A DNA stretch of 61,982 bases, counting the filler, from Hausera hauseri (Eukaryota), in assembly GCA_046269625.1 (NCBI GenBank). It is 10 parts of 10 records of this genome, joined end to end, with 100 filler letters (N's around TTAATTAATTAA, not from the genome) between each part and the next. Parts side by side here need not be neighbours in the genome. Positions count along the whole stretch, not along the records: positions 22,092 to 27,321 come from JBJURY010303278.1; 9 more parts are not named here. One strand, given 5' to 3'. A program made the position numbers and the translations under genes. The notes under the pieces were generated by a model. It had not been told where the DNA came from and ran no database searches. It worked only from the letters and a program-made list of their open reading frames with translations. The stretch's first letter is position 1; every line of letters starts with the position of its first letter. Below, in pieces: positions 13,969 to 55,475 of the stretch.

Positions 13969-14045
13969 AGCCCGAATGGGGTAATATGACCCTTTTTAGT
14001 TGTTGAAGATTAGCATAGATTGGACAACTGAGATCGCATTTTCCC
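13969..14045 (+). repeat. 77-bp exact direct repeat, copy 1 (copy 2 is the contig end 21915-21991)
   Basis: AGCCCGAATGGGGTAATATGACCC...GATCGCATTTTCCC identical; preceding base differs. Confidence 0.95.
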
Positions 14046-21914: not shown

Positions 21915-21991
21915 AGCCCGAATGGGGTAATATGACCCTTTTTAGTTGTTGAAGATTAGCATAGATTGGACAACTGAGATCGCATTTTCCC
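21915..21991 (+). repeat. 77-bp exact direct repeat, copy 2 (contig terminus)
   Basis: Identical to 13969-14045. Confidence 0.95.
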
Positions 21992-22091: not shown

Positions 22092-23148
22092 TTAAAACGG
22101 CCCTCCACGGTCGGTGGTAGATGACCCTTCTTTTCTTCAACCTTAATTCCCATTTGTCTCATAACAGTTGGATGGGTTTCTATCTCTCTCACTCCGGTTA
22201 TATGCGTTACCGGTATGGCTAATTTCTTTATCATCCTCTCTACTTGATACCCCACTAAGATGTATCCATAGAGGCATTGTGCTACTTTTTGTTGCACTAA
22301 ATCGGAATCCTTTCCATGGTTTAATTGTTCTCTTTTAATCCCGGTAACTTCTGCATAAGTTTGTAGCACTTTCTTTCTCGGGTTAATGATTTTCGAATAG
22401 ACCTCGGCACAGTTTTCTTCTCGGATGGATATTTCGATCGGAATATAATTTCCCTCTTCTCCTTTCCCATAATTTATTGCTACCATTCTGATATTCCTTT
22501 CATCGGCCACCAATCTAAACGAATGTAGATGTGCGTCCTGTTCGTCCTCCATGGGCCTTTGTCTAAATTCTAAGGGCGGCAATGAGACGATTATTATCTC
22601 CTCTTCAGTCGTCTCGATCATCATCTTTACAGGTAAGGCGGTCTCACGAAATTCCAGTTCGTAGTTATGGAGATTCCTACTGTCAAATACAAATGTGCTG
22701 AACCGGGTTTGCCTTCCTTGGAAAGAGTCCCATTTTTGATCTTTCAATTAATAATAAATTTCCCCGTCGGCCAAGTGCACATATATCTTCTGTTCTTTAT
22801 CCGTTTGATACTGAGTGATCTGTATGAAGGAGTATTCCCTAGCATCTTTGTCCTCCCTCCATGCGTACAAGTATACCGCTCTGGCCTTCTCGGTTGTCCC
22901 TTTTAACCCATTTGGTATCTCTCCAACTTTCCCATACTGAACGAAGCTTTTTCCTTGTAACTCCGTACTGATTTGCCTATAGATGGCCTTTGAGTTCGGT
23001 ATTCGCACTGTTACATACCGCCGTAAAAATTTGTCAATACTAAGTCTACTTGTGTTTTCCTCATTGTCGACGCTAAGTCGGCTCGTGATTTCCTTGGCGT
23101 CGATTCTAATTTGGCTTTGGTCCATATGGATCTGACTACTTCCAAATC
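22092..23148 (-). pseudogene. ORF3 N-terminal half: unknown domain plus REX4/ISG20-like DEDDh exonuclease fold
   Basis: 22748-23125 and 22092-22747 are one frame split by a single TAA (Arg in copy H); VYSKIINP..VTGIKREQL..VQQKVAQCLYGYILVGY. Confidence 0.72.
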
Positions 23149-23245
23149 TAAAATAGAAAACATAAATGTTAATCTTAAAACAAAGGATGGTTTTAAACCA
23201 AAACCAATTCTTTGTTTTATGACAGAATAACCTGATCTGTAATTG

Positions 23246-24660
23246 TCAGGTTATTTTATCATACGGATCTATAGGGTTTTCCAATTCCCTTAATTCCCAT
23301 TCTGCATTTTTATGACGCTCAGAATAAGAGTATTTGGTAAATAATCGAAAAATCGCAATTAATGTAATGAGAACAAACGTTGACAGTATAAAGATGGACA
23401 TGATCGGCAGTGTAGTTAATCCATTTGGCGCTTGTGTGGTGATTAGCGTTGTGATTTCCTCGTCTATATTCTCATGTGTATGCGACTCGGCACGAATTTC
23501 ACCTAGGATATGTAATGTAATGGTTTGCTTTTGTTTATTTGTTGCATGTACTTGCACTATGTATTCGGTTTGTGGGTTTAATAAATTGCAATCTGTTTGA
23601 TAAGTATCTTTAAATAGCGTCATGATTTGATTATTATATGTTGTTCGACAACTTATGTATATATTGTAGTTTTGTCTCTCTTCCACAAAGAACACAATCT
23701 TAGATCGGTATGCCGAATATTTAATAGGAATGCTCCCTAATTCTCTCCTAAGTACACTGCCCGACGTAGCGATTGTTGCAATGGCAACAACTCAAGTGGT
23801 TGGTTCCTAGTGGTCAATTCTACTGTGATTTTGCATATTCTATTTTCCGGATAATAAGTTCGTAATTGTATGCTTGGTTTATTAGGTCTCACTTCGTATA
23901 AATGAAATTTTATTTTAAACTCTTGATTCACGGGTAGTTTGCAACAAGGGTGTTGCATACCTGCGCGAATAGAACAATATTCTATTTTCGGGGTTGGTTT
24001 CCTTTTTGCTTCAAATGTGATGCTGATTTCTAGGTTGACATGCTACCTCTGTTTTGGCATCTACTTGGATGCATTGTTTTTGCTTGTTTTTAGATATTCT
24101 CCGAATATTTTGGTCTAACAGTCTCACATCTGGGTTGGTAGATCGTAGCAATTCATTGGGTTTTACTCCATGATGTCTGTTCCACGCAGGGATGACTAAT
24201 TGAAAGGGTGGTTATACTTTAATATAAACTTCGGCTGAGTCTGGTAAGTATAGATGATAGTTAAGGTTATATATATATATGCCAAAAATCTATATTGCAA
24301 CACTGCGTATTTTCTCCTGGCTCAAAATCACAATTCTTCGCTTCCTTTGTTGTTACATCATATAAACCAACTTGAAATCTTCCGAAATCGTTGTGTGGTT
24401 TCCAATTCTTAAATCCAACACATACGGTTTTGGTGAGTAATAATAAATTGTCATTGATTGTAATAATTTAGCATCTTCTTTTCTTCGGATATCTTTGGCT
24501 GTTGGTTTATTTTCCGTTTTAATCGGTTCCGATTTTGATCCGCTCTTCCGAATTCCGTATATATCTCCTAACGTAGACTCATTGTGCCGTCATTGGGCTT
24601 GTGTCCTCGGAATATAAGAAGCAATTAACGATAATGCTAGAACTACCTAAACGTACGAGA
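23246..24660 (-). pseudogene. Type I membrane protein with FN3-like repeats in env position, disrupted
   Basis: Hydrophobic VVLALSLIASY signal; Cys-patterned beta-rich repeats; LNPQTEYIVQVHATN FN3 motif; TM IMSIFILSTFVLITLIAIF; tail PYDKIT. Confidence 0.75.
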
Positions 24661-25385
24661 TCGGTCTGGCAAATACTGAGGAAGTTTTTACCTCACGTTG
24701 GCGTAAATTATTACGCTTGTTTGGCCGTATTTCTGTCTTGACAACTGTTTGTACGGGCACAACTTCTTCCTTTCCATTTTTGTTAATATATACTGTAGTT
24801 GGTGTAACTCTGATTACTTCGTACGGTCCTCTGCCTGTACGGGTTAATTTCAATGAGGTGCCTTTTTTAGCTACAGGATAATGTACATAAACCCAATTTC
24901 CTTGTTCTATATCATGCGGTTTTGTTTTCTTATCATTTTGTTTTTTAAATTGTTCTTGATATTCTTGGGATAATTTTTTAGCGATCTCCCAACACTCTTG
25001 TAATCGCGTTTGTAATACCTCTAAGAAAATTTTGTTCTAAATCTTCGGGATTTACTGTGTATGGCGTCATTCCTAAGTCCGTGGGCAACACGGCTTCGCG
25101 TCCATACATCATGAAAAATGGAGCGATTCTTGTTGCTGGATGTGGTGTGGTATTAATAGCAAACTGAGTCCCTTCCAAAAATTCGTCCCAATCTTTTTGG
25201 TCCTTAGCCACTACTGTTGACAGTATACGTATGACGGTAGCATTTATCCGTTTGACCATTCCGTTACATTGGGAATGATATGCAGCATTTGTTAATCGTT
25301 CAATTTTGAATATCTTAGTGATTTTCTCAAATAGTTCGCTGGTGAAATTTCTTCCTCGATCTGTGAGTATCTGGTCTGGGGAACC
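24660..25385 (-). pseudogene. pol: Integrase, C-terminal part with GPY/F motif
   Basis: TDRG, WDEFL..TQFAINTTPH, PFFMMYGRE, GRGPYEV. Confidence 0.9.
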
Positions 25386-25389
25386 CCAA

Positions 25390-25833
25390 TTACCAATACG
25401 TCAAGCACAATATCGAATGAAGAACAATATAAATATCTCTAAGTTCGATAGTTCAACGTCTAGCTTGATGATGCTTTTCTGAAGGATTTCACTGCTTCAA
25501 GTCGCTCAACAACAATCACTGAACTTCTGATTTGTTCAATTTTCTTCAGGTTTATATACTCTTATGCTTCTCAATTAATTTTTTTATTATTTCATTTTCT
25601 TCTATTATTATTATAATATTTCGCTTTTATTCTGATTAACAATACCTTCTCGTCACTGATTAATTATTATATTGCCTACAATCTACATTTATTACATTCA
25701 AATTGATTGTTATTTTTGCAAATCTAATTATTTTCATTATACAATCCTGCGATTCATAATTAGTTCTACAATAATTAAATTCGCTTGCGTATGTACATAT
25801 TCCGTTGTGAATTCTTACAGCTGTACTACAACA
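25390..25833 (-). repeat. LTR or LTR fragment
   Basis: PPT AAGGAGGAGAAA then TGT at 25833; TATATAAA near 25555; non-coding. Confidence 0.6.
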
Positions 25834-26545
25834 TTTCTCCTCCTTGAGCGGCATCCTCGAATGTGCCCATTGTGTCAGGAGAGGTGCCGTGAGAATGAGG
25901 CCGTCGCAACATTTCCATACGTCGTCTTAGACTGGGTCCGGAGCTGGTACTTGGTTGGTTTTCTCTGGGATTTGTTTCGAGATCATAACTGTGGTAGGGC
26001 TTTATTCTAACTATTCTGGTATAGCTACCGTTTGAGTAATATTTTAAATTGGCCGCTTCGGATCTACATACGGGGCATGTTGTTTTTCCATTATCCAGCG
26101 TCAATTTTTCTAAGCAGTCTCTGCAATATTCGTGACGGCAATCAGGGTTATTTAGCACTACGTATCCCTGTTTCAGATTTGCCTCACATACGGGACATTC
26201 GTTTTCTTCCCTTTTCCAATTTTTATCGTCCAAGTCTACTCTTAACATAATTTCTATAGGTTCTGATACTAACCCGTTTTCGTCTTGGTATAAGTAAGCA
26301 GAGATTCTTTTTTTCTTCGGGTTTATGAAACTATTTTTGGGATCGCATCCTACGGATATTAAAGTCCAGTAGCTGATAGTGTCTCGATCTAAATCGGGAA
26401 CTTCACCAGTCGATCGGTATTTTTGATATTGTTTCTTCAATAATAGTTTTACTGACTTATCCACGGGGATTAATATTTTACCATTTTGTCTGGACTGAAA
26501 TATCGGGGCAACGTATTTTCTGATCTTAAAATTTTCCCAGACATT
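25826..26545 (-). CDS. RING-HC (C3HC4) finger protein fragment, C-terminal end of ORF3 of an adjacent copy
   Basis: CPVC..CRHEYCRDC..CPVC; N-terminal RKYVAPIFQSRQNGKILIPV matches KYITPIFQSKRNGKLIVPV at 48100-48180; stop lies at PPT/LTR start. Confidence 0.8.
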   Translation of the reverse strand, partial: NVWENFKIRKYVAPIFQSRQNGKILIPVDKSVKLLLKKQYQKYRSTGEVPDLDRDTISYWTLISVGCDPKNSFINPKKKRISAYLYQDENGLVSEPIEIMLRVDLDDKNWKREENECPVCEANLKQGYVVLNNPDCRHEYCRDCLEKLTLDNGKTTCPVCRSEAANLKYYSNGSYTRIVRIKPYHSYDLETNPRENQPSTSSGPSLRRRMEMLRRPHSHGTSPDTMGTFEDAAQGGEML

Positions 26546-27149
26546 CCCCAAACGTTCCCAAACCACAGGGACACTGGCAAATGGTTGCTAGTTTACAGAA
26601 TTGTGACAATAGATACTGACATAAACATCAGTTCCACCCTAGAATTAAGCTTGATGACAAACTAAATGTAAAAGAATGATAAAATAAGAGCCTTCCAGAG
26701 ATCTTTTCAAGCATTCATCACAAACACAGACAACATTTCGTTAACAATTAACAAATGTTCATGCCTCGCGTATCCTCCAGGCCATAGTTTCAGCCGAAGG
26801 ATTAAAAAAGACATGGTTTAATTTTGCAGCCGATAAAAAAACAGGTTCCTGCTTTATACAGACAAAACCCTGTACACTGACTGCAGAGAAACAAAACATA
26901 ACAGTACTTAAAAATTATCAACTTCAGTGTAATTAATAAGAAATGTAAGATGCTTTAGTTTTCACTACACCAATTATATTATTCTACTTTTGTGATGCTA
27001 GGTCTGGATAGTTCCATGATGCAGTGTTCCAGAGAACTAGACCGCATCACTAATAGTCATGTCACAGGGTAGTTTTGTGCTGCATGACGGTTTGATCGCA
27101 TCAGGATCAAGCAGCCTGAACCATCTGACCTTGTCACTCGATAAGGTAG

Positions 27150-27421: not shown

Positions 27422-28371
27422 TGTTTGTACGTCTGAACAAAATCCGCATTCCGACCCAAACTGATGTAATTCACATTGCTATGGGTAAACTTTTCCGAAT
27501 CGGTGGTATAACTGCCTGTTTGGTGAGCAGTCGTTTGAAATGTAATAAGCACAAATTTCATCAGTCGCATGTCTCTAAACAGTACATCTTTGTAGAACGA
27601 AGTTGAACCTTTGGGTATGGTGTAAAACACGAGTTCTCTGCGTTGTAATGGATAACAGGCATTTTATATTTCCAAGCCCAATAGATGTCTCATGTGCACA
27701 GATGGTTCTATCTTTACACGACGTACGTATAACCGTGCCTCGGTAATTTTCAGTATTGGTTTGAGATTTGCAACTGTAGTTTTCCAACGAAAGACATTGT
27801 CGCTGCATTGTAGCCGAATGATGGCTTTAACATCAGACGCTAGGTATTTCGGATGATCAAAAAAGTCAAAGTACAGCGGTTTACACATTGTAAGTGCTTT
27901 TGATGCTGCCACCCTTACCTGACGGTTTGCTGCAGTGGCGTCATATTTGATATTTTTCGTCAAATGAGTCGTTTTTATGTCTGTGCTGTAATTCAGAGCC
28001 GTTTCAATGAGTGCTTTGATACTGTATAGACTGGTGTTGTCTTCGATTTTGACGCTGTTCAGAGTCATTGAAGCTTCCTGGAACAGTGTGAGGAAAAAGT
28101 ACTTGGCCGGTGTGACATTGTATGTTGCAGCGAGAACCGTTGATGTCACTTTTTTAACAATGACTTTTACACAGAGTAGCGTATCGTTCAAATCCAGGTA
28201 TTCATTGTCTGATGCCATTATGTTGAAATGAATGTCAATGTTATCATCCGTTGAAACCGAATCAACGGAGTAGATTTCTTCAAATAACACACTGTCAATA
28301 ACAACTAGTGGCGCGCCTTTGTCAAATATACACAACTCAGATTTTGCAGATGCCATTTGTCTATCTGTCAA
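27422..28371 (-). pseudogene. Maverick major capsid protein (double jelly roll), frameshifted and cut by gap
   Basis: KSELCIF..IHFNIMASDNEYLDLNDTLLCVK..ITEARLYVRRVKI typical of Polinton MCP. Confidence 0.85.
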
Positions 28372-28375
28372 TCAG

Positions 28376-28712
28376 TCAATCGAAAATCGTACAACATCGA
28401 CGTTTGTTTATAGCTGATGAACTCGATGATGCTATACGGCATTTTCTCATCATCAAGCCACTGCCAGCGAATTGTTTTTTGACTGATTCAACGACTCCCG
28501 GTGAAGCGCTTTTTATTTCCGACAAGGCGTGTTCCTTCAGTGATGGCAAAATCGATTTATTTTCATATAGTACGTACTGTGCTGTTTTTCCTGCCACAGC
28601 ACCGATACGCTCCAACACCGGAAATGCTAAACGTGCCAATGTACGCAACCATCCAGACCCATATTGTTTACCAACGAAATACGGCAGATCCCCTCCATAC
28701 TGGGGTTTCCCG
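28376..28712 (-). CDS. Maverick small core/amphipathic protein
   Basis: QYGGDLPYFVGKQYGSGWLRTLARLAFP and FAGSG: repeated adenain-type GG/GSG cleavage-like sites; basic C-terminus. Confidence 0.65.
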
Positions 28713-28733
28713 TAAATGGAAACGATTTAAGAA

Positions 28734-29807
28734 TCAATTATGTTGGATTTGACGGAAATGAAGAGTTAGACTGCTTGTGGTACCGTACGGAAATTCAATT
28801 AGGTAGCCCGCGTCACATCCGATATTCACTTTAACATTGTTTATAGATGTAGATACCACAGGTAGGCACATTGGATTATCGAGTTTGCCAGCGACATTGT
28901 CGCCGGCAGTACAGTTGCTGCTTTCCGGATAAATTGAACGGAGTAGCGGTACAAGTACTCCACCGAACAAAATCGGATCGGTGACATTTACGTAAATGTA
29001 CATTTGACTTAGTCCCGTTTTCAGTTTGGGTTTGAGTGTTGCAACATGTACCACCGCCGTCTTCGTATTCGTCGATGCCTCAAACTTCTGTATTTCAAAA
29101 CTCAATATTATGGTCAAAGCTTTGTCCAATAAAATGTTAACAAAATCCGTAGCCAGTTTAAATTTAATGTACTCGTACTCGAAAACTTTAAATATCGCCT
29201 TGTACTTTTGATTTGAAAAGTGTTGACAGAACTGTGCTGCAGATTCGCAATAGACATTGTCTCCAATCGATACGTATGACGTTGACACAATTTCTGTTGT
29301 ATAGGTAAATTTCACCGTTGTCTGGTAATATACGTGATTTAATATATGAGCAACTATATTTTCACTTTTAATATTTGTACCTATTTACTCTGAATTTGTG
29401 AATCCAAATTTCTGCGCCATCTCAGAGAAATCAAAGTTAACAGTAAATTCAAAATCTGTCATAAAATGTAAGTTTTTCCCTAAAATAAAAACATCGATCT
29501 TGCTCAATATGCCGTAATTTGCTTTGGTTGTGCAAAAGCCCGATTCTCAGACTGTTATATTTTTGTTAGTAAGTGTCAGAGGACAAGAATATGTTATGGT
29601 TTCAGTAACAGTCTTATTGTACGTTATTTTCATACTACCTTTCAATGTCACCGGTGCGTAGAGAAAGTTAAATTCCGTCAGTGCAACCTCCCATTTTCTA
29701 CCCGATAAATCCAAAGGATTGTTTTAATTTACAATGTATTCACTGGCGGAATTGTTCAGACGAGTCGTTGGACAACTGTTGTTCGGCAACACAATGTTAA
29801 TACTCAT
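28734..29807 (-). pseudogene. Maverick minor capsid (penton) paralog 1
   Basis: MSINIVLPNNS..PLDLSGRKWEVALTEF; C-terminal MYIYVNVTDPILFGGVLVPLLRSI..SLTLHFR. Confidence 0.82.
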
Positions 29808-29851
29808 GATCTCGATGATGATGATGATGATAATGATGAGAAAGTTTGTTT

Positions 29852-30933
29852 ATTATCGAAGACGACGACGAAGTTGTAGCATCAAATGTGTCTTGGCTCC
29901 AAACAGAAATTTAATGGATTTTCAAAATTCGTCTACTATTTACACGAAAATACTGTGCACAGCATCAATATAACGGTACGTACATGGGCCGGATGATATT
30001 TACATGAGCATTTTCACCCGGTGCTTTATACGTGTCCGAATCCAATCCAATATAAGCCAATAGTTGTTTACGGTATCCGCCAATATATACGGGTTCGGTT
30101 AGATCCCTTAAAATATTGATTTGATGAAATGCTTCGTAGAGACATGGTTTCTGTTTAGCAACAATGGACCGTCCGCCGCCGGTTTGACCAAATTTTCGTT
30201 TCTTAAAACCCAGATTCCTTGCCAATAGTTCATCAAAGGCAAACTGTGTAACATTATCGTGCAGTGTAAAGGAAATACGATCATCGGAATTTAATTCAAA
30301 TGTCTTGAGAGACAATTTAGCTACTGCCTTGATGGTTGCACACAATTCTGTTTCCGTTTCCGTAAGAAAACCAATTCTTGTTGTATGGAAGTAAAAGAAT
30401 GATTCAATGTTTTGCCAGTTTACTGTAATATCCGTGGTTTTCGCAGTGGAAAAGTTAAATTTTTCACTAAATATACTATGTCCACCGAGCTGAAGACCTT
30501 TGGAGTGGACATTGGCAGATGATTGAAAACCCCATGCTTGAGCATCTGCTAGTGATTTAAACTGCAATTCAATCTGATGTTTGTGTTTTAGCACCAATCG
30601 ATTGTTTAAATGAAAAATATAAACCTCTATACTTTTTCGCTTGTAATATTTCCGCTTGTAATTGCGAACGTGAAATGTTACATTAGAGTCTCGGACTAAC
30701 TGCAAACGACTAGATGCACGAGATTGTCTTACTAGGGTATAGTATATTCTACTGTTCTCACGTATTGTTATTGGTAAAAATGTAAACGTGAATTCCGCCG
30801 AAGCCACTTCCCAGGCTCCCTGGCGTAAGTCCAGCGGCTCGTCCAACTCCATGGTAAACCGTTCAGCGGTATTGTTGTTGTTGTTGTCATGTTCTGATAA
30901 TCTGTTACTATTAAGTATCAAACAAATGCTCAT
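29852..30933 (-). pseudogene. Maverick minor capsid (penton) paralog 2
   Basis: MSICLILNSN..PLDLRQGAWEVASAEF; C-terminal DLTEPVYIGGYRKQLL..RPMYVPL..HLMLQLRR. Confidence 0.8.
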
Positions 30934-30934
30934 C

Positions 30935-31960
30935 GCTCAATCTGCGAAGCAAAAATCAAACTCCGTGTAGTGTATCCGTGCAACTTGAGGAGATATTGAT
31001 TATTCGAACCTTTGCCGCGTGAACGTAGAATTTCCTGAATACGATATACATTGGGTTTCTCGGGCAGTACCTGCAGTTCTTGTTCGAAGAATTTACCGCG
31101 TATTTCCTCGCCGTTTTCATCCTCTAAAACGCACGTGACAGGTATTTGTTTTGTGTTGATTGCCGAAATGCGGAAAACCTCGTCGCTCCAGTTCTGATTG
31201 AAATTCTTAATGAATGGCGTCCTACTTATTTTGAAATACGTACATAATCACCGATTTTATATTTGGACGTTTAATTGCCTGTCGTTATGTTCAGTTTTGA
31301 TAAAGCCGCATGTCCAAATTATCGATTACGCCAACTGGCCGTAATCCATTGATGCCACGATGTGTCGAATGATTCTATGTATGAATAATATCCGGCAGTA
31401 CATCTACCCAGCGTTTGTTGCCTTGCTTCGTAAAGAATTTGTACAGGCGACCGCGCAATGTTCGATTAAATCGTTCAACTAGTGCAGCCTTGTATTGGGA
31501 AAACACTGAGTAGTGGTTTCGCCAAACCGTTTCAAGACCGCTGCAACGTGGGCATTGTAGAATTCCTTACACAAATCCGTTTTAAATGCTTCGGTTGTTG
31601 TTTTTGTATTAGTGTCTGAACAGCGTCGGCAATCTCTTTACCGGATTTAGATTTCACAGCAATTGCACGGGCAAAACGACTAAACACATCAACACATGTC
31701 AGGATTTACCGATACCCATAGTTGATGCTGGTGTACAGAATCATTTCCATCAGATCCATTTGCCATACATTATTCACACAGGCAGAACGTATGCACTAGT
31801 TGGAAACTGCCTTCTTATCGGTTTGTTTAGACTGTATACTAACTGTTTCCCGAGCCAACGTTGGGTCTGCTGCCGAGTTTGTTTGACAGTCTTTTCCAGT
31901 ATACCCGACTGAATGACGCGGGTCGAACCAAACATTGTCTATTGTTGCCGTCGATGATGT
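30935..31960 (-). pseudogene. Maverick retroviral-like integrase with chromodomain-like end, heavily disrupted
   Basis: WFDPRHSVGYTG start; WQMDLMEM, TCVDVFSRFA, KAALVERFNRTL, RWVDVLP, QNWSDEVF, GKFFEQELQ pieces in shifting frames. Confidence 0.85.
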
Positions 31961-33586: not shown

Positions 33587-34805
33587 GCGGAGGTCAAACT
33601 GGTAAAACAGTCATCAATTTTCACAGAAAACTATAAATTAAAAGCTCATAAATTAGTCTTAAAAAAAAAGGCTCCAAACTGCTCCAAAGCTGTTTCTCCC
33701 TCTGTTCTTATCAGAGAGATTGTGTGTGTGTCCGCGGTGCTGCAGGCAGACTGCCGGACGCATCTCTCTCTGCTTTTCTCCTTGTAAATTTTATTGCTGC
33801 GTTTCATGTGTTGTGCCTTCAGAGTAAAATTGTGTCTAAAGAAGCAGACGTGTTTCTGTGGCATAGTTTAATTATTCTCTGTTGTGTTTGTTGTTATTCG
33901 TGTTTGTTGTAGAAAGAGAAAGAAAGAGAAAGAAAGGTGGTTGTGCATGCAAATTGTTTTATGATCGATCAGGGCGAGTATTCGCTTGGGATAATTGTCC
34001 GCTTGTCCGCATATTCCGGAAAGCCTGACAGTTTTTCCCCACTTCGTGTTGACTTTTTCTGCTTTGGCCAAGTAGAGAGTTGGCGCCTGCTTATTTCATA
34101 AGCTAAGGTAGAAGTGTTTGTCGCTGCGTAAATACTCCGTTTTAAGCTACGGTTTTTAGCGGTTGCGGTTGACTTATTCTGTCAGCGTGATACTGACGGA
34201 TTTCCAGAGCTTTGTGTTCTGAAGAACAGACTTTCTGTGTCTGTTGGTAGAAGGGACCATCGCTGCGTGCGTTTGGTCATTGTGTTTCGTGATTTACGGT
34301 ATTAAAACCGTGTTGGTTGGTGGAGTGTCGCTACTGTGGTAGCTACGCCATTGTTGAACAGAGAAACACTGTTCTTGAAGCCGCTCCCCCCCAGGGTAGA
34401 GCATTCCTCTCTTGTGAGTGAGAGAGAGAGAAAAAAAAAAAGATCTTTTAAAAGAAACCAGAAAGGTTCAAACTTGTTGTGGTGTTTGTGTTGATACTCT
34501 GTCCACGAGTGGAAGAGTCAGAGAAATACTTTAAAACTCTTAGTGTTTTAAAGTTACGCCGCTGAGCGTTTTTCTACAGTGTTAAATCACTAAAGCAGGA
34601 GACAAGGACACCTCCTCGCTCAGGCGAAACAGAGTTTCCGCCATCTTGAAAAGAGCTAACAGGTTCTGTTAGAGTCCGTCCCTTCCAGAGGGCGGAGTGT
34701 TCACTCTCAGTGAGTGAAGAAAAAAAAGAGCAGTGTTGAGAGAAACTCAACCTGAAACAGCATTTTGATCTGTTGGTCTTTAAAAAGACTTAAAAACAGC
34801 TCAAC

Positions 34806-36242
34806 ATGGCTGAATCAAGTGATAAAATAAATTTGCTCATGGAAATGATGGAAGACATTGAAAGTGCTTTCAATTGGCTACGTGTCTTTCAATTATCAAG
34901 TCGTTTCCGTGAAATTCTACACGACTTTCACAAAGAGCACCAGGACCAAACTGAAAAAATTGAGACTCTTGAACATAAAATCAAGGTTCAAGGGGGAATT
35001 ATCGATTATCAGAAAACTTTGGTTCAAAGAAAGGATGATAAAATTGAGGAGTACCAAGTCCAAATTAAGGAGAAAGAAGTTCTCGCACAAAAAAAAAAAG
35101 ATTTGCTCCTGGACAATATAGCCCTCCTTGTAAAAACTACAGATCAGGCCCGTCGACTTGAGGATGCTGAACGAGAAATCAAGTGTCTGAACAAGGTGAT
35201 ACGGAAAAAAGAAAAATTCAAACAATGGCGTGACGCACGTATTCGTGCCACAAAGAAGCAATTTGAACAGTCCCTTGCTAAAAAAGACAAAATCATTCAA
35301 AGCATGGCTTTAGAACTGAGAAAACTCAGAACACCTAGTGTTTCCCCAGATGAGCTTCAGAGTGGAGATTCCACAGATTCAGATAAGGATCTGAGCAGAG
35401 CCTCCTGTCAGGCAGAAGATGAGTGTTCATCTGAGCTTCCTGACAACAGTGACTCTGTAAAATCCATTTCTGATTCACCTGACTCAGGTTCAAAACCAGT
35501 TCCTGAGCCACCCACTAGCCCTGAGGAGCTAGTGGTCCAGGCTACTACCAGTTCACCTGACACCCGTCCTCATGACAGTGGACAGGATGTCGAGGAGTCT
35601 GAGATAGTTCCTCGACCTTCCTGCGAACTGGAGGAGAGGGGGGTGACTGAAAGTCTGCCTGTGACAGTGGAGGTGCTGTTAGACGAGGAATCAGACATAC
35701 CTCTGAGTACGTCTGTCCCCTCTGAGGGGGGGCCGAGTGCTACAGCAGAAAATCCTAATGTGAAGCTCACTTTTTCATCAGAGAACGGTGGTTTGGTGAG
35801 AGAAGTCTCACCTCAGTCAGATGAGGCACAGGTGAACACACCTGAGCCCTCTCTGCGTCCTGTTGAAGCCATGAGTGGCCTTTTGACCTCTGACATGGCC
35901 CGAGCCATGCAGTCGTCAGGCCCTGCCTTTGTGATGTCTTGGGGTCAGAAAAACATGCTGTTAAAACCTGTCTGTAAGCCGCCGCGTACAGAGCCCAAAA
36001 AGAGCAAGCCAAAGGTCAAAGCAACACTCAGAGTGTTGAAACAAAAGGCCTACTGGAACAAAGTGGGAAGATATGTCAAAAAACATATCAAAGCTTTCCT
36101 GGTTGTTGACCGGTCGACAGAGCCACCTCTGTCAGGTTCCAGAAGTGGAACCTTCCCTCGGAAAGAGCTCTATGGAAACCAAATAAACCCTTTTGAAGTT
36201 CTTTCTAGCTTCCTAAAAGACAAAACTCTTCCAGGTGACTGA
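34806..36242 (+). CDS. 478-aa coiled-coil / acidic disordered protein of a non-autonomous LTR element (Bhikhari/crestin-like by architecture)
   Basis: Intact ATG ORF in good context (CAACATGG); K/E-rich heptads about aa 40-175; S/P/E-rich middle; no gag/pol motifs; downstream of LTR and PBS. Confidence 0.7.
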   Translation: MAESSDKINLLMEMMEDIESAFNWLRVFQLSSRFREILHDFHKEHQDQTEKIETLEHKIKVQGGIIDYQKTLVQRKDDKIEEYQVQIKEKEVLAQKKKDLLLDNIALLVKTTDQARRLEDAEREIKCLNKVIRKKEKFKQWRDARIRATKKQFEQSLAKKDKIIQSMALELRKLRTPSVSPDELQSGDSTDSDKDLSRASCQAEDECSSELPDNSDSVKSISDSPDSGSKPVPEPPTSPEELVVQATTSSPDTRPHDSGQDVEESEIVPRPSCELEERGVTESLPVTVEVLLDEESDIPLSTSVPSEGGPSATAENPNVKLTFSSENGGLVREVSPQSDEAQVNTPEPSLRPVEAMSGLLTSDMARAMQSSGPAFVMSWGQKNMLLKPVCKPPRTEPKKSKPKVKATLRVLKQKAYWNKVGRYVKKHIKAFLVVDRSTEPPLSGSRSGTFPRKELYGNQINPFEVLSSFLKDKTLPGD

Positions 36243-39066: not shown

Positions 39067-40357
39067 TACAGAGAGAGTCAAAAGTAACGAAGCAGTAAAG
39101 AGTAAAACATTTATGAACAAACTAGAAAAGATATAAGATATTTAAATCTTCGAAATACAATCTATTATGTTCTATGGTCTTTTGCCATCGATCATCCAAA
39201 TTTTCGATTCCTAACCGATACCATGCAGCCGGCTTTGAGGCGAATTACTCACGGACACTCTTCTCCACTTCGTTAAGGTTCCGAAAGGTTCTGCGGCGAA
39301 GAAAGTGAGCCATCGACCTGAAAAGATGGTAGTCCGAAGGAGCAAGGTCTGGGCTATAAGCCGGATGTGGCAAAAGTTCGATTCCATCCAGCTCCCGAAT
39401 TTTTTCTTGCGTAGATCGGGCGGTGTGCGGCGGAGCGTTATCTTGCTGCAGCAGAACCCGCTTTCTGTTGACAATGGCCGGGTACTTTCGGACTAAGGCC
39501 TCATACATCCGTTCAAGTTGTTGTTGATAGAGCTCAGCTGTGATGCCATGGCCATCTGGAACTAGCTCAAAATGTACTGGACCCTCAAAATTCCACCAAA
39601 CACATAACATGACCTTGTGTTCGAACCGTCCCCGTCTCGCCACAGGTTCTGGAAGCTGTCCCGGGTCCAACCACTGATTCCTTATATCAGGATTACGGAA
39701 GAAGATCCACTTTTCATCATACGTAACTACACATTTGATGAAACGCTCGTCCATTGAGTTTTTGAGTAGCTCCCGACAGATGTCTGCGCGCCGTTTTGCT
39801 TGTGCTGGTGTCAATTCATTATGGACAACTCGACAGCTCCTGTTTACTTTGCCGAGCTTGTGGAGGTGGCGAACGATACTGGTTTGTGAAACTCCAGTCT
39901 CTGCCGAGATTATGCGCGTGCTTGTGGCCGGAGTCGTCTCAACAGCCTGGAGCACAGCTTCAGAATCAACCGTTGAAGGTCGTCCGGAGCGGAGTTGATC
40001 GATGAGCTCGGTGTTGCCATTTTTGAATTTTGTGAACCACCTATGCGTTGCAGAAGCGGAGATGACACCTGTGCCCTCAAATTCGCATGTTTTTTCCGTG
40101 GTTTTACGCTCACTGCTTCCCTGTTTTTAATAATGCCGTAAAAGTGCTCGAATAGCTATTTTTTCGATGTCCGTTATAAAATCTATAAAAATTGTTAAAC
40201 AAAATCATATGACAATACGCATATTATATATAAAAGAGGATAAAATGAGATTTCGAATGATATGCTGGTTTTGTTAATTGTAAAGTTTATTGGCACATAA
40301 TCGACCGATGACGCAGTCGATAGGTAACTGCTTCGCTACTTATGACTCACCCTAGTA
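39067..40357 (-). mobile_element. Full-length mariner (DD34D) transposon, 1291 bp
   Basis: Imperfect ~30-bp TIRs TAC-AGAGAGAGTCAAAAGTAACGAAGCAGT / TACTAGGGTGAGTCATAAGTAGCGAAGCAGT with TA ends. Confidence 0.92.
39160..40174 (-). pseudogene. Mariner transposase, start codon mutated (ACG), internal stops
   Basis: RSGRP, VTYDEKW, QQDNAPPH, HPAYSPDLAPSDYHLF. Confidence 0.93.
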
Positions 40358-41511
40358 GTTTCGGCGTTTCATATTCCACTATCTGATCAGCAAAATTTTT
40401 AACAATTGTTATAATTTTATTTTGTTTACTTTGTCTATTCAGATCGAGTAGGGTTTTCTTTACTATAGGTTGTACGACTTTTTGATCATCCGTATCAATA
40501 GTTGGTTTTGTTAATGTTTCTTTTAGATGCTGAAGATATGCTTGCTTATATCTAATGCTCATAATTGATTCATTTTCATTATTGTTTCTCCATTTATTAT
40601 CCGTCATTTAGCTTCTTCTTCTTGGATTAATTCGTTCATCGGTCTTGCTGCAACATGGCATGCTATGCTCGGGATCATTCCTACATTTATTAGGAGTTCT
40701 TCGGGATCCAAAATTCTGTCAAAATATACTATCCTGAGGTGTTTCATGGGTTTATTCGTATGTGATCTGATTGCTTGTTCTAAATCCACAATTCGGCTAT
40801 TTAAATCTATTTCTAATATAGGGAAGAGATCACACTCCACACTTGGATGTACCGCTATTTTCTGATTTGAGAACCTTTCATCATTTAGATAGTAATGTCC
40901 CAATACTTTCAACAAAGTTCGAGATGTGCTATTATATCTCCATTTATCAGTTGCTTTTTTCGTTAATTCTTCTGCAGCCTCTTTAATTTCAGGAATATTA
41001 TTTTCTTTATTAAGATACGTCATTATTAAGTCGTCTAATGCTTCTGGAAATTCCTGTAAAGCTGTCATTTTTTCGAGAAGAGTTGAATTTTCTTTTATAT
41101 TTACGTTGTCACGTGTTTCTTCATCATTAAATTTATCAATGTTGAAGGCATCCAAGTCATATTGAAGTCTGTGATATTTATATCATCTCCGAAGCTATCA
41201 TGCATCTCGTAATATGTTATATCATCGATAGTACCTTGTAAAATCCTTACTGGTGAACGAGTCATTTCTTTCCTCATAGACCCTTTGCGCGGTCTATTTA
41301 GTCTTGTTTTTACTATGGTAGGTTTCTTTACAACAGCTGGTGTTATGTCTTCTTTGCGTATCTGTACATTTTCAACCAATTCTGGATATTTCATCTTTTT
41401 GTGATAATTAAGCGGTTTTTTCAATTTCTCTAACCGTCTTCTCAAATCTCTGTCTGTTTCAGTAATTTCTTTGACATACTGAGCGTTTTCCTCTAAATTT
41501 TTCATTTTATT
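40358..41511 (-). pseudogene. Retroelement post-gag region with ubiquitin-like domain (copy F), cut by mariner and gap
   Basis: ILEIDLNSRIVDLEQAIRSHTNKPMKHLRIVYFDRILDPEELLINVGM..CHVAAR fits the UBL pattern; NKIITIVKNFAD matches NKIAKISKQFAD in contig J. Confidence 0.62.
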
Positions 41512-48082: not shown

Positions 48083-49890
48083 CTGGTATTATTTTTTTAG
48101 TAACATCTTCAAAGATTTGCCTACTGGTACTATCAATTTACCATTCCTTTTTGATTGGAAGATTGGAGTGATATATTTTTTTATCTTCGGATTTTCCCAA
48201 ATATAGATATTCTCATAAACTTCTCATGGGAGTCTCTTCTTCGTAATACATTTATTTCGGTTATTTGTTGTTTAACTCCATCTGTGGAGTCCTTGTATGC
48301 TCGTCTGGTAGAATTTTGACTGCTTGCAGATGTAGACGGCTTTTCTCTATACTGTTTGAGTATGGGTTCTGCGTCTACTTCATTTATTTGATCTTCCGTT
48401 ATCCGGATCGGCTTTGCTTCTGTATCCGGTTTTGCAGCTTTGTTTTTCTTTTTGAACAGATATCCATAGAGAGGTATTTTCCTTTTGTTTACAGACATTA
48501 TGGTTTCGTTTTTCTTTTCTTGGGAATCGATTCCCTTCGTTTGATACTTGTGTGATTTCTGGTATCTTCAATTTTATTTGCGGTTCTATGTTTTTTGTAG
48601 AAGTCCCTGAGGTGGAGCTCGTATTGGATTTATCTTAGGTTTGTCATCGAATACCCTAGACTTGGGCCCTTGTATGGTTATTCGATAATTTGTTCGTTGG
48701 GTAGTTTCGATATTCCTGGGTGGAGAGTAAGGACGGAAATTCATTCTGTGTCTAAGGCGTAATTTTTCGGGGTTAGTGGAGCTGCATAGGTTTTGACTCG
48801 GATTGTCTGGGAGCCATTCATGGTCCCATTTTAATCCTGCGTTTATATCCCGCAAATATTGGGAACGTTGACTGGTGGTCAACAGATGACTTATTTTGAC
48901 ATGCTTCCCACTCATTGACTCGATCATCAACTTAAATCGGCCTTCAACGGTCGGCGGTAGGTATCCTTTTCTTTCCTTCAGGCTTTGTTCCGGTCGTCCC
49001 ATTTTTGTAGGGTGGGTTTCTATTTCGCGCATCTGTTATGTGGGTAACGGGTATTTTTAATTTTTCAACAATCAATTCTATCTGATATCCAACAAGGATA
49101 CAACCTTATAGGTAATGTGTTAATTCTAAGCGGACCAATTTGATATCCTTGCCGTATATTAGTTGTTCTTTCCTTACTCTTGTCACTTCCGCGTAAGTTT
49201 CTGTTATCCTTTTTCTTTGGCTGATTATTTTTGAGTAAATCTCGATGCCGCCGGCTTCTCGAACTGATACCTCAATCGGAATGTAGTTTCCGTCATCCCC
49301 TTCTCCGTAATTTAAGTCTATAATCTTAGTATTCCTTGCATCTTGTACCAGTCTAAAAGTGTAAATGTTTATCCTGATCTCTTTCAGTGTGTTTCTGTCT
49401 GAATTCTAATGAAGGTAATTGGACAGCTGGCGTCTCGTCAGTCACTTCAATCATTAGTTTCACCGGTAATGCCACTACCCGAAATTCCAATTCACAATCG
49501 TAATAGTGAAAGTTTTTGCTGTTGAGGAGAAAAGTGCTATACCGACTCTACCTTCCTTGGGAGAAATTCCAAGCTTGGTCTTTTAGCCGATAATAGATCT
49601 CTCCATCTGCTAATTGAATGAATATATTTTGACATTGATCGTATTCATATTGAACAAATTGTCGTAGGACATAAGCTCTCGCATCCTTGTCTTTTCTCAG
49701 TGCGTACAGACGTACGACTCTATTACCTTCCGTAGTGCCTTTAAGATTATTGGGGATTTCGCTGATTTTTCTGTACTCCACAAAGTTTCTTGCAGTTCAT
49801 TATTGATTTGTCTAAATACAGACTTGGATAAAGGAATCAATACTACGTCGCTCATTGTTGTTTCTGGTCGCCATTCGTATTCTTACCAAT
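48083..49890 (-). pseudogene. ORF3 (unknown domain, REX4-like exonuclease fold, basic linker, start of RING-bearing part), disrupted
   Basis: IIDLNYGEGDDGNYIPIEVSV..IYSKII..TYAEVT..ILVGYQ..REIETHP..LPPTVEGRF; end KYITPIFQSKRNGKLIVPVGKSLKMLLKK. Confidence 0.72.
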
Positions 49891-49987: not shown

Positions 49988-51350
49988 TCAGGTTATTTTA
50001 TCATAGAGATACTTTTTGGGTTCCAATTCCCTTGTAGTTTTAAGACGCTTAAAATGACAATTTTTGACAATTAACCGAAAAGTCGCAATTAATATAATGA
50101 GAACAAACGTTGATAGTACGACAATTGATATGATCGGTAAAGCTGTTAATCCCGTTGGAGCTTGTGTGACGGTTGGAGTTGTGACCTCGTCGTCTATATT
50201 TTCATATATATGCAATTCTGCACGAATTTCGTCTAAAGTACGCAGTTTATTCTCTGCATATACTTGTACTATGTAATCTGATTGTGGTTTTAATAAATTG
50301 CATTTTGTCTGATAAGTGTTTTTAAGTAGTGTTACAATTTGATCATTATACGTTTTTTGGCAGCTTATGTGTATATCGTATTTTAATTTTTCTACAAAGA
50401 ACACAATTTTAGATCGACACGCCGAATACTTAATAGGTATAGTTTCCAATTCTCCATTAGGCGTACTGCCCGATGTAACGGTTCTCGCAACGGTACTAAC
50501 CCGAGTAGTTGGCTTTTTGGTTGTCATTTCTATTGAAATCTTCCCTATTCTATTCTCGGGTTAATAAGTTCGCAAATGTTTGCTCGGTTTATTTGGTTGT
50601 ACTTCATATAAGTCAAACTTTTTTGAATTCCTGGTTTATTGGTAGTTTACAACAAGGGTTTTGTACACCGGCATGAACAAAACAGTATTTTATTTTCGGA
50701 GTTTTCCGTTTACTGCTTCAAAAACAATACTGATTTCTTCATTATGGGTTAATTCTATTCGAGCATCTACTTGGATACATTGTTCACCATTATTTATTGA
50801 GATTCCTTTAATATTCTCGTCTAATAACCTTACGTTTTGGTCGGTGGATTGAAGCATTTCGTCGGGCTTTACTTCACATCGTTTGATCCAAGCAGGAATG
50901 ACCAGCTGAAGTGGGGATTTATTTCAATATGGACTTCTGCTGAGTCTGGTAAGTACAGGCGATAAGTGAGATTGTAAGTATGTCCAAAGTCTATACTGCA
51001 GCACTGGGTATATCTCCGTGTTCAAAATCACTTACTTCATTTACTGTTATGTCGTATAGAACAATCTGAAATTTCCCGAAATCGTGATGTTGTCTCTGAG
51101 TCTTAAATCCAACGCACACAGCGTCTGGCGAAAAGTAATGAACCTTCATTGACTAACAAAATAGTGTCTTCTCGTTTCTGGATTTCTTCGGCCGTTGGTT
51201 TCTTTACGGTTATAATAACTTTTGGCTTTGATGCGCCCTTCCGAATTTCATATACATTTAGCGTAGATTCTTCGTCCCACCATTGATTTTGTGTTCTTGG
51301 AATATAAGAAGCAATTAACGATAGTGCTAAACTATCTGAACGTATGACAT
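49988..51350 (-). pseudogene. Type I membrane protein with FN3-like repeats (copy H)
   Basis: LKPQSDYIVQVYAEN; TM IISIVVLSTFVLIILIATF; tail LYDKIT; collinear with 23246-24660. Confidence 0.75.
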
Positions 51351-52249
51351 CTGTCTAGCAATTATTGAAGAAGTTTTTATCTCGCGTTGGTGTAAATTGT
51401 AGCGTTTATTGGACAACACTTTGTACAGACACGACTTCTTTCTTTCCACTCTTGTTGATGTACACATAGTTGGTGTAACTCTGGTAACTTCGTACGGTCC
51501 TCTGCCTGTACGAGTCAATTTTAACGACGTACCTTTCTTGGCTACTGGATAATGTACATAAGTCCAATTTCCTTGTTCTAAATCATGCGGTTTCGTTTTT
51601 TTTATCATATTGCCTTTTAAACTGTTCTTGATATTTTTGGGATAAATTCTTGGCGATTTCCCAACATTTTTGTAGTCGCATCTGTAATACTTATGCAAAG
51701 TTTTGTTCTAAATCTTCGGGATTGACCGTGTACGGCGTCATTCCTAAGTCTGTATAACAGCTTCTCGTTCATACATAATGAAAAATGACGTAAATCTTGT
51801 TGCTTAATGTTGGGCGGTATTGCAAATTGAGTTCCTTCTAATAATTCTTCCCTATCTTTTTGGTCTCTAGCTACTACTGTTGATAATATGCGTATGACAG
51901 TTGCATTTATTCGTTCAACAATTCCATTAGACTGAGGGTGATACGCAGTAGTAGTCAACCGCTCGATTTCAAATATTTTGGTAATCTCAAACAGTTAGCT
52001 TGTAAAGTTTCTTCCTCGATTTGTTAATATTTGGTCTGGAGGTCCATATCGGCAAATCCTTCTTACTACGGCTTTGGCCAAAGTTTCTGCCTTCTGATCG
52101 ATTAACGCTATCAACTCGACAAAATGAGTTAGTCGATCAATACAAGTTGAGATATTGTTTTTGTTGGTCATAAGAAGCGGTCCTACGATATCCATTGACA
52201 TGGCTTGCATAGGTCTATTCGGCACGGCAATCGGTTTTAGCTCTGCCAT
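51350..52249 (-). pseudogene. pol: Integrase core and GPY/F motif, disrupted
   Basis: ORFs 51995-52249, 51617-51958, 51327-51698. Confidence 0.9.
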
Positions 52250-52563: not shown

Positions 52564-52663
52564 NNNNNNNNNNNNNNNNNNNNNNNNNNNNNNNNNNNNN
52601 NNNNNNNTTAATTAATTAANNNNNNNNNNNNNNNNNNNNNNNNNNNNNNNNNNNNNNNNNNNN
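52564..52663. other. Artificial contig spacer
   Basis: N44-TTAATTAATTAA-N44. Confidence 0.98.
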
Positions 52664-55475
52664 GTTGTAAAGCTTGAACTGGTCCTTCTCAAAGATGTCC
52701 TTGGAATTTGTCCGCAACTTCGTATCGATACATATGTGGGGTTGCAGCCAGTTGGACTGGCAGAAATGCAGGGTTCTATGGATCTTAGTAATGCGGAGTT
52801 TATTCCTGATCGCCTGCAAAGATTGATGTAATGGACTACATACCTCTCCCTACTATCCAGATGATAGAGAAGCTTTCTATGCTTTCCATGCGGAGGGGGC
52901 TTTCTCTCAGGGACGAAAGACAGCTGTTGATACCTTGTGTGGATAGAAGCCGGATATTCCATATCCATTTCCAATATATAGCCCACATCTTTACTGGGAT
53001 CCAGATCCAGTATAGGGATGTTTTCAGGATGCTCGACCCACTTGAAATTATCATATGGCAATGGGACGCTTATTGCCCATCCATACAAATTTTTGATATC
53101 CAGCTGTGATATATATGAGGATTCCTAGGATGGATCATACTGGGCCATATACTTGTTGTTGGCCTCGCTATACCGGTGAATAGCCTGGCATATTCCACCT
53201 CTAATGCCTCTCTCGATCATGAGGATCATGTCGTAATGCTTTATGATTTGCAGCCTGACACCTGTATATCTCAGCTTAGCTGCCCAATTCATCCCCGGAT
53301 CCGTAAAGAAATGAGCCGGATTTAATGCATGGCTGTTTATCGTAACATACCTGAAGCTCTTAAAGACATCCATGAGTAACAGCATGTCCATTTTGAGGTA
53401 TATGCCGCTGTATTCTCCTAATGTTCGGCATTGAAATGCATGCCAGACGTTTTGAATATGCTGATAGTCCTCATCATTGATATCGCAATCAGACAGGACA
53501 TTGCAAAAGTCCTTCTTGGACGGCAATGAGGTTTCATTTAGTGTTTCCCATGAAGTTATGTAGTCATAGAGAAACACGCTTTTCCTCTGGACGAGGTCAA
53601 ATGCAGTGGGAAAGAACCGCTTTGTCTTTTTGAGTTCTCCTGCAGGGAGGTTCTTCACTAAACTGTCAAGTAAAGAACACAGGAAACGGAAACTGTCTAT
53701 GAAGCGAAGCTTGATTTTCCCAACATGCTTGGTAAATGTGATGTATATTTCCTCAATATTAGGGACCACATCAATGTTTCCTTCAATGTTGTCCAATTCC
53801 CGAACAGTGAAATGGGAGTATTAGCCACTGAGATTATGGAACACTACAAGCACATATGTTGATGTTTTGCAACGTAGATTGCAGTTGTTGCACGCTGCGC
53901 TCCCATATTTGCCTGTAAAATGGCAATGTTCCCTGACTTTATGATTCTCGTTAGTGAATGATTTGGAGCACAAGTAGCATGCTGTTTCCTTGCGCCATTC
54001 TTCTTGCTGCTTCGACATGCTTAGTGTATCCTTATGCTGTTGCTGCATATCTCCAATCCTATAAGCCATATCTTCAAGTCGTTTCATGAAATGCGCTGCT
54101 GCTCCTGGACCCTTAAATAGATATGGTTCACTGTCCAGTCCTTTGGCATACATGCAATATGACGTGAGCTCATGATATTGGAATGTCGTTGTGCTGCTGT
54201 GTTGGAGATTAGGACTACAATTCTGAACTGGACGCAAAATAGTCTCAAAGTTGTAATAGATCACTATTGGGACCTTGATCTTCTTTTCGAACTCCTTGAA
54301 TTCAATGTAATCCTCCTTGGGAAATTCTGGCCTGATACAATAATTGTTGTTGCAGTACATCTTGTGCTCTTTCAGCTTTAATACAGTTACATCGCCGCTG
54401 AAATGGGACATGCATCGTTTACATATTTCTATTTGTCCATGATGTTTCGTAATTTGTGATCTCACTAGCCGCTCAAAGTCTTTGATCCAAACATAATGTT
54501 TCTTTTCTCCATCGTCTAGTAGGAGCAGATCCCTATAATCTTTTAATTCAGTATAGCATATCTGCAGGGAATAGAATTTATCATCCTCGTCTAATCCTAG
54601 GATATTGATGGACATGTTGTTGACTTTTCTAAATTTTTTGAATTCATATATGGATGTAGGGAACTTGATACATTGGAAGTCATAGTTGTGCTGCGCATCC
54701 TTATATAGCCAAACTCGTGAAGCATGATTTTGATCCGCTACGAGTTTTGACAGAATGGCATACATGAAACATATGTTGTCGTTATTGTAGGTATTAACAC
54801 GTGCTTTTTTATTAGCGATCCAATCAGGGAGCTGAATATATGAACTGCCCCACATGTAAGAGTACTTGTGAACATACAAAATCAATCTCTTGATGGTTTC
54901 CAGAGTCAATCCGCTCTTCTTATCCTGGCTTTCCCAGCTTCACGGATCAGCTTCTCGTGCGCCTCTTGCATCCATCCTGCTATATTGGTGTTTTCCAATA
55001 TGGGTCTATTTTTGGTCTTAAAGACCTTATTGGTTTCTTCGCCATCAACATTGATGTACGTGGCCTCCAGTTTCATATTTACCTTTAGGTCTTTGAGCTC
55101 AGCCATGTTGTCCTGAAGAATCCCCTCTGCCTCGTTCTTTGTTGTTTGACCAGTTACCTCAATAACATATGTGCGGAATTTTCTCTTTAATGCTGCCGCA
55201 TCAACTGACCGTTGCCTTTGGCTTTTTGATGGAGCCGGTGCGTCTGATGTGGTCTTGCCTGATGTGGCTGCGCCTAATGCTGCTGCGCATGATGCGGCTG
55301 CGCGTTTCAGTTCTCTAATATGATTCGCAGCTGCTGCAGCAGATCCAGCAGCATAATGCGAGGAAGAATACTGCGAAGCATCATACTGCGAAGCAAATGC
55401 ATCAAAATTATGTTGCTTATTAAAGATGGCCTTAAAGATGCTCATTAAAGATGACTTTGATGCGAAGTGACTCAA
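52664..55475 (-). pseudogene. Maverick/Polinton protein-primed DNA polymerase B, disrupted
   Basis: GSSYIQLP, NICFMYAIL, HYVWIKD, VREHCHFTGKY..CNNCN, FHNLSG, RFIDSFRFL, IERGIRGG, NLYGWA, GYILEMDMEYP, FEKDQFKLYN. Confidence 0.93.

Follow-up and report, generated by a model that had tools for sequence, protein, structure and literature searches.

In the bdelloid rotifer LTR retrotransposons Juno and Vesta, an additional open reading frame (ORF3) encodes an exonuclease domain of the DEDDy type whose invariant residues are intact, and extra ORFs of this rotifer type are typically expressed from spliced messages, according to the sections consulted of Rodriguez et al. 2017 (PMC5408684). Another kind of cargo has been described in the planarian element Burro (GYPSM1), which carries ubiquitin-related sequences (AIR1 "with RING Zn-finger", MATH, BIR and ubiquitin-like domains) for which interference with the host has been proposed (Arkhipova and Yushenova 2019, PMC6431247, in excerpts). 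On the host side, PML-1 joins a RING-B-box-coiled coil module to the pseudo-exonuclease PXL, which binds RNA, as described in parts of PMC13659232 and PMC10123124. Dead DEDD folds acting as RNA binders further include Exu (PMC13659232, same excerpts), as well as Maelstrom and EXD1 (both as cited in the consulted sections of PMC5408684). The protein counter-defences of animal LTR retrotransposons are nevertheless poorly known, and their accessory ORFs are usually taken for envelope genes.

The locus considered here lies in a window of 61,982 nt (the whole stretch of Hausera hauseri DNA analysed), which consists of ten contigs joined by N44-TTAATTAATTAA-N44 spacers. The RING ORF is located on the minus strand of contig C (22092-27321), and a related copy lies in contig H (48083-52563), which besides the main match listed below shares another 787 nt with contig C at 65% DNA identity. 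Both window copies of the accessory ORF are broken, and they are compared throughout with P0001, an uninterrupted protein of 870 residues that is encoded on an ENA contig of 16 kb and is the sole member of its 90% cluster. The features are as follows:

22094-23038, minus strand: beta-rich-looking N-terminal domain and likely DEDDh-like pseudo-exonuclease of the accessory ORF, copy C, interrupted by one in-frame stop and running off the end of the contig

23148-23169, minus strand: putative splice-acceptor-like site before the accessory ORF (pyrimidine run and AG), found likewise in contig H at 49891

23249-23791, minus strand: 3' part, still open, of a membrane-protein ORF that is broken and occupies the env position; it includes a hydrophobic segment of 19 residues (mean hydropathy 2.7)

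24650-25400, minus strand: integrase core and C-terminus (Pfam rve, E 0.004), frameshifted, N-terminal part missing, with a motif that we take to be of the GPY type

25400-25833, minus strand: putative, incomplete LTR-like stretch with a TG start, 28% GC and a TATA-like box at 25558, abutting mid-integrase

25834-25845, minus strand: putative polypurine tract, 12 purines then TG, read as QGGE in the ORF

25826-26065, minus strand: post-RING strands, low-complexity tail and stop codon TAG (25828-25826)

26066-26197, minus strand: C3HC4 RING finger with eight ligands, ending CPVCR (from Pfam, ligand spacing and the P0001 model)

26198-26544, minus strand: pre-RING domain (KYxxPIF...), 5'-truncated at 26544, matching P0001 641-746 and contig H 48204-48084

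26545-27321, strand not applicable: unrelated flank truncating the RING ORF, unlike contig H and P0001; the cover by diverged copies ends near 26544-26574

48092-49793, minus strand: accessory ORF in contig H, the more decayed of the two copies, with N-terminal domain, pseudo-exonuclease, linker and pre-RING start, cut by the contig end

49991-52255, minus strand: remains of the integrase and membrane-protein ORF in contig H (74% DNA identity to contig C over 2249 nt)

An exhaustive phmmer search with the RING ORF returned 89 matches, only one of which, P0001, covers nearly the whole query (residues 14-248, 50% identity, E 1.2e-55), while the rest match mainly the RING. Residues 641-870 of P0001 follow the RING ORF to its final QGGEML, and residues 58-377 align with the other piece of contig C (23038-22094) at 41% identity over 320 residues. 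Colinearity with contig H extends over P0001 87-675 (271 versus 287 codons between anchors), in the segments 87-226, 234-346, 345-585 and 632-675; the contig H copy contains 5 stops, occupies three frames and breaks off after the first 40 codons of the pre-RING domain. The original prediction had matched the N-terminal part of the RING ORF to the truncated end of this second copy, and the two contigs indeed become alike in DNA from 26544 (C) and 48204 (H), with a score of 74; the best of 200 shuffles reached 39. It had also made the RING the C-terminus of a long ORF with a nuclease-like domain, an arrangement that P0001 displays in one uninterrupted frame, in the order beta-rich N-terminal domain, pseudo-exonuclease, linker, pre-RING domain, RING, and tail across the purine tract. 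A protein joining a predicted pseudo-exonuclease to a RING therefore exists in nature, P0001 being seen as a protein only; the fusion is found in 1 of the 89 matches and is visible in neither copy of the window. As for the contig spanning exonuclease to RING that the original prediction had called for, P0001 spans both regions as a protein, but none of the contigs of two public runs does.

Other searches added little to this set. A word-index protein search with the RING ORF, at near and longer lengths, returned no match even though P0001 exists, which makes it a weak method here, and the same search with P0001 found P0001 itself only. The JGI metagenomes yielded 93 and 379 pattern matches, none of them confirmed as a related locus, and IMG/VR yielded no related locus beyond generic RINGs (one search gave 2 loci, of which L001 is a generic RING protein).

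The linker of P0001 comprises about 210 residues that are charged, poorly conserved and unstructured, properties that would also suit a polyprotein, the 870-residue product being cut there so that the dead nuclease and the RING act apart. LTR elements do encode a protease; no cleavage site was identified in the product, however, and the family's protease gene is absent from the window, so that two proteins separated in this way seem very unlikely.

The nuclease-like half of the presumed single protein is recognizable at a distance. Residues 246-345 of P0001 match DnaQ and PolC exonuclease structures, and a profile of the N-terminal half built from P0001, C and H gives four PDB matches, all four to DEDDh nucleases (DnaQ, PolC, SDN1 and ISG20L2, E 8e-4 to 0.09). 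NCBIfam weakly indicates DnaQ/PolC (E 0.002-0.01), Atlas entries for DEDDh scored 0.85-0.89 as leads only, and Pfam gave no match on this half. The DEDDh alignments cover ExoI to ExoII, none of them reaching ExoIII (H-x4-D). In the column of the ExoII Asp, P0001, C and H have M, M and I, respectively; for ExoI, where two registers are possible, P0001 and C lack an acid in either, and H has at most one, as its first Asp may persist and the Glu is absent. Counting the ExoI D and E and the ExoII D, none of the three catalytic acids is thus present in P0001 and C, and at most one of three in H. With at least two of the three alignable acids missing from all three copies, the nuclease-like half is likely a pseudo-nuclease, in line with what was first proposed. 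Models of this half are of low confidence (pLDDT 38 and 42; mean 42 for the N-terminal half alone). The preceding domain looks beta-rich, as residues 58-220 match cupin, jelly-roll or C2-like beta-sandwiches, only up to Z 6.3 and on a model of pLDDT 42. A second Atlas lead for P0001 58-420 was the C-terminal domain of the arenavirus nucleoprotein (score 0.88, lead only), a DEDDh nuclease with which the virus counters innate sensing.

At the other end of the ORF, the frame at 26587-25826 comprises 253 open codons, of which those at 26587-26545 belong to the unrelated flank. The RING occupies residues 131-174 (nt 26197-26066) with the spacing C-x2-C-x15-C-x-H-x2-C-x2-C-x12-C-x2-C, and its eight ligands are alike in C and P0001 (C at 1, 4 and 20, H at 22, C at 25, 28, 41 and 44). 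The C3HC4 motif had been reported in an uninterrupted frame, and it stands there with all eight ligands and with both peptides quoted at the time as written; the Pfam search then suggested gives 30.1 bits for zf-C3HC4 in copy C (cut-off 21). Copy C also scores 33.5 bits for zf-RING_2 (cut-off 27.3) and lies above cut-off in four RING models, and the P0001 RING reaches 30.8 bits for zf-C3HC4 (cut-off 21). A tight RING-HC pattern occurs once in the six frames of the window and in none of 100 composition-keeping shuffles. The RING is the only confident globular part of the 870-residue P0001 model (pLDDT 74-87 in 10-residue blocks), for which the top Foldseek rows listed are nearly all RINGs (probability up to 0.99, best rmsd 2.3-2.5 A), every RING match having E>0.001 with a query of this length. 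By its ligands, profile score and cross-brace fold, this is a RING-HC (C3HC4) finger. The pre-RING domain matched no Pfam or PDB family and had no usable Atlas match. A separate short RING gene starting at the first in-frame ATG (26248) was considered and rejected, since homology and selection reach 100 codons further upstream.

Is such a RING a ligase? The loop hydrophobics, helix Trp, Pro and Arg after the last Cys of a RING serve E2 binding, and RINGs with a loop Pro and a following Arg are typically E3 ligases. P0001 has all of these surface residues, and both C and P0001 retain the C-P-V-C loop as well as the Arg that follows the final Cys; in copy C, the central-helix Trp is replaced by Leu. 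Most aligned contigs differ from C at the corresponding codon (26103), so that the RING of copy C itself has probably decayed. The nearest solved sequences are E3 RINGs, e.g., RLIM, TRIM5 and RING1B, and the model resembles the folds of Cbl, MUL1, MDM2 and TRIM RINGs (none at E<=0.001). The RINGs of PML and of some viral proteins are thought to be scaffolds, and the present one could similarly be a zinc-bound platform for oligomerisation or protein contact; the Trp missing from copy C would be in keeping with this, as would the predicted strands on either side of the RING, which suggest packing into a larger domain. The Trp retained in P0001, the Pro and Arg retained in both copies and the E3 character of the nearest solved sequences nevertheless make a mere scaffold quite unlikely, and E3 activity of the predicted ligase appears likely from the same residues.

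Comparison of C with H yields pN/pS ratios of 0.31 in the N-terminal half (266 codons), 0.15 in the integrase (124 codons) and 0.49 in the membrane-protein ORF (170 codons), and in the pre-RING overlap (38 codons) pN is 0.17 with pS saturated. Over 25650-26750, 1254 contig records of one public run (X1, possibly the window's own source and hence not independent of it) and 81 of a second (X2) align at 80% likeness or more, and only 64 and 5 at 99%. Two indel rows appear at the 10% threshold, both outside the ORF and none inside, and one X2 record covers pre-RING domain, RING and tract at unchanged length. Among the best 40 of 217 differences, as selected by the software, 22 fall at third codon positions (p 0.004 versus one third) and 21 are silent; many of the non-silent ones, at which C differs from almost all other records, probably correspond to private decay. 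The frame is retained by many diverged copies in the two runs, alongside signs of purifying selection. LTR elements can acquire extra ORFs (consulted sections of PMC5408684), and the RING might have come as a passenger of a captured host mRNA, without any role for the element. However, all ligands are kept at 50% protein identity, the frame is kept across many diverged records with an excess of silent-site changes, and no close cellular parent is found among the 89 phmmer matches; as a description of the present state, a passenger is largely refuted and we consider it extremely improbable.

The RING frame runs across the purine run AAGGAGGAGAAA (25845-25834) and the following TG (25833), and stops 8 nt inside the LTR-like stretch. 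The frame was said to end exactly at the polypurine tract: its last codons, QGGEML*, do span the tract and the start of the LTR, and only "exactly" is slightly loose, the stop lying 8 nt further on. Eight purine runs of such length occur on the minus strand of contig C and they are thus not rare, so that the tract is called from its position after the last ORF and before TG. The C-terminus of P0001 is an identical QGGEML, an indication that a purine tract is probably crossed at the end of P0001 as well; this match reflects DNA constraint on the tract and is silent about protein function. Relative to the tract, the RING is on the side of the element, and in P0001 it is in the same frame as the rest, rather than in a separate ORF or outside the LTRs, the outcome that would have spoken against the original prediction. 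Part of the relatives depart from contig C in this region: 44 X1 records do so just past 25827, with low mutual agreement (0.46), and 45 records behind 25886, so that some tract-bearing relatives may lack the RING region or have diverged from it. The 434 nt after the tract are AT-rich with their TATA-like box, and the term LTR stays putative because the window holds no second copy of them. This stretch (25400-25833) is hardly common to other copies, unlike the tract just before it, which could be due to fast LTR turnover.

The remaining anatomy is that of a Ty3/Gypsy element, with a DDE integrase (rve) and a purine tract directly before the TG of the LTR-like stretch. The integrase of contig H (52255-51998) scores 33.7 bits for Pfam rve (cut-off 32.6) and is 54-59% identical to that of C, and neither contig has anything upstream of the integrase (PR-RT-RH portion). 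The broken env-position ORF (23249-24640 and 49991-51360) shows a signal-peptide-like start, judged by eye, a Cys-rich part and a transmembrane-like segment, whose 19 residues have a mean hydropathy of 2.9 in H; no meaningful Pfam family was matched in either C or H. Its silent divergence between C and H (pS 0.39) is far below that of the accessory ORF (0.78-1.0), which suggests recombination between subfamilies. The order in the element is integrase, env-position membrane-protein ORF, acceptor-like site and accessory ORF; since it follows the membrane-protein ORF, the latter is the last accessory ORF and not the env-position one.

In contig C itself, the integrase and the exonuclease-like ORF do not precede the RING piece but follow it downstream. 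The contig is permuted, the 3' end of an element (RING, tract and LTR-like stretch) being followed by mid-integrase and the remaining internal region, a layout that fits either a tandem pair with a common LTR and a deletion, or an inserted circle with one LTR. Over 25390-25857, a 468-nt record of X1 matches the contig with 0 differences; as the likeness between C and H starts only at 25379, this record may or may not bridge the joint between LTR and integrase. At the other border, 11 X1 records continue past 26544 with sequence unlike C. An artefact of contig joining was excluded, as the RING ORF lies entirely inside one contig and single run records span from the pre-RING domain to the tract.

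Other repeats are found elsewhere in the window. Another Gypsy family, with RT, RNase H and integrase, is present in three copies in contigs A and B (1-21991) and has a strong strand skew; its integrases are 24-29% identical to that of C, and it contains no trace of the accessory ORF. Contig B contains an identical 77-nt direct repeat (13969-14045 and 21915-21991, 7946 nt apart, the second at the contig end), possibly corresponding to LTR ends. The ORFs at 27664-31247 and 52615-55526 have only a weak Pfam match, to Endonuclease_7, and resemble by eye what we take to be Polinton/adintovirus capsid-region genes with a protein-primed DNA polymerase B. At 39248-40126 and 40607-41182 are the remains of a Mariner-type transposase (Pfam Transposase_1) and an ORF that weakly matches the ubiquitin family (E 3e-4), and at 34794-36239 is an open frame of 482 residues with coiled-coil-like and low-complexity parts, without Pfam family.

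Taken together, these features make it marginally probable that the last accessory ORF of this Gypsy-type LTR family encodes a nucleic-acid-guided ubiquitin ligase helping the element against its host. The ORF would be expressed from a spliced subgenomic RNA, the dead DEDDh domain of its product would dock on the nucleic acid of the element, and the RING would tag nearby proteins with ubiquitin. Recruitment of an E2 by the RING seems probable and binding of RNA or cDNA by the dead nuclease fairly so, whereas the identity of the substrates is a more tentative matter: that they are host proteins sitting on the element's nucleic acid, e.g., silencing or restriction factors, is possible though doubtful when taken on its own, and RNA-bound host-defence proteins, the target initially put forward, are plausible. 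An active E3 with the same fusion might instead modify the Gag, integrase or membrane protein of the element, with effects on trafficking, budding or uncoating; the membrane-protein ORF lies directly upstream in both copies, and the dead nuclease might serve to anchor the ligase on the RNA-protein particle of the element. The ubiquitin- and apoptosis-related cargo of Burro has on the contrary been interpreted by reviewers as meddling with the host, itself a proposal (PMC6431247, in excerpts), and a ligase directed at the element's own machinery seems to us unlikely. For the guided ligase acting on the host, the most far-reaching version is an RNA-guided E3 that would dock through its dead DEDDh domain on small or structured RNA, while its RING would bring about the destruction of the host's silencing or restriction proteins bound there. 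Such an E3 would mirror PML and be the first single-chain, ubiquitin-based counter-defence of an LTR element; we regard this version as somewhat unlikely. In any case, an intact RING joined to a dead nuclease, in a fusion under selection, is a concrete candidate, assayable as two small domains.

How does this ORF compare with the systems described so far? Like ORF3 of Juno and Vesta, it is an extra ORF of a Gypsy-type element, located downstream of pol and containing a domain of the DnaQ exonuclease family; the rotifer domain is an active DEDDy, whereas the matches here are of the DEDDh type, with catalytic acids missing and a RING at the end of the same frame, the term "ring finger" having 0 occurrences in PMC5408684. 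It shares with Burro a Gypsy-like element carrying ubiquitin-related cargo. In Burro, this cargo lies mostly in a gag-env-pol polyprotein of 4,900-5,100 residues, in an element of more than 30 kb, and no exonuclease domain is named in the excerpts consulted (PMC6431247), whereas here it forms a separate ORF 3' of the integrase that ends at the purine tract. No MATH, BIR or BCL2-like domain, the marks of Burro, was detected in the ORFs scanned with Pfam, the 5' half of the element being absent from them. The viral RING E3s, such as baculovirus PE38/IE2, poxvirus p28/N1R and herpesvirus ICP0, also put a RING to the use of a parasite; they show no likeness outside the RING. Within that class, p28 pairs a nucleic-acid-binding domain with its RING. 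Models of PE38-like, IE2 and N1R/p28 proteins match the present RING by fold (BFVD, none at E<=0.001), a search dominated by disordered alignments when the full P0001 model is used. In the main text of a 2026 survey of Gypsy elements with env, the words "RING" and "exonuclease" are both absent (PMC13524379), and a pseudo-exonuclease-RING ORF in an LTR element was not described in the literature searched, which covered few subscription papers; the original account of Burro (Grohme et al. 2018), its supplements or Repbase entries might already contain this pairing of domains. The closest likeness in architecture is to PML-1, which also unites a RING and a DEDDh fold without catalytic residues in one polypeptide. 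PML-1 is, however, a host protein that restricts retroelements, and its RING is N-terminal with B-boxes and a coiled coil (PMC13659232, PMC10123124, in part), whereas the RING here is C-terminal, no B-box was found in a Pfam scan of P0001 and no coiled coil was detected, which places it outside the PML/TRIM (RBCC) group; PDB searches with P0001, the N-terminal half profile and the RING gave no sequence match to PML. The combination of a RING with a pseudo-exonuclease would thus be a design occurring on the side of the parasite, as it does in PML-1 on the side of the host.
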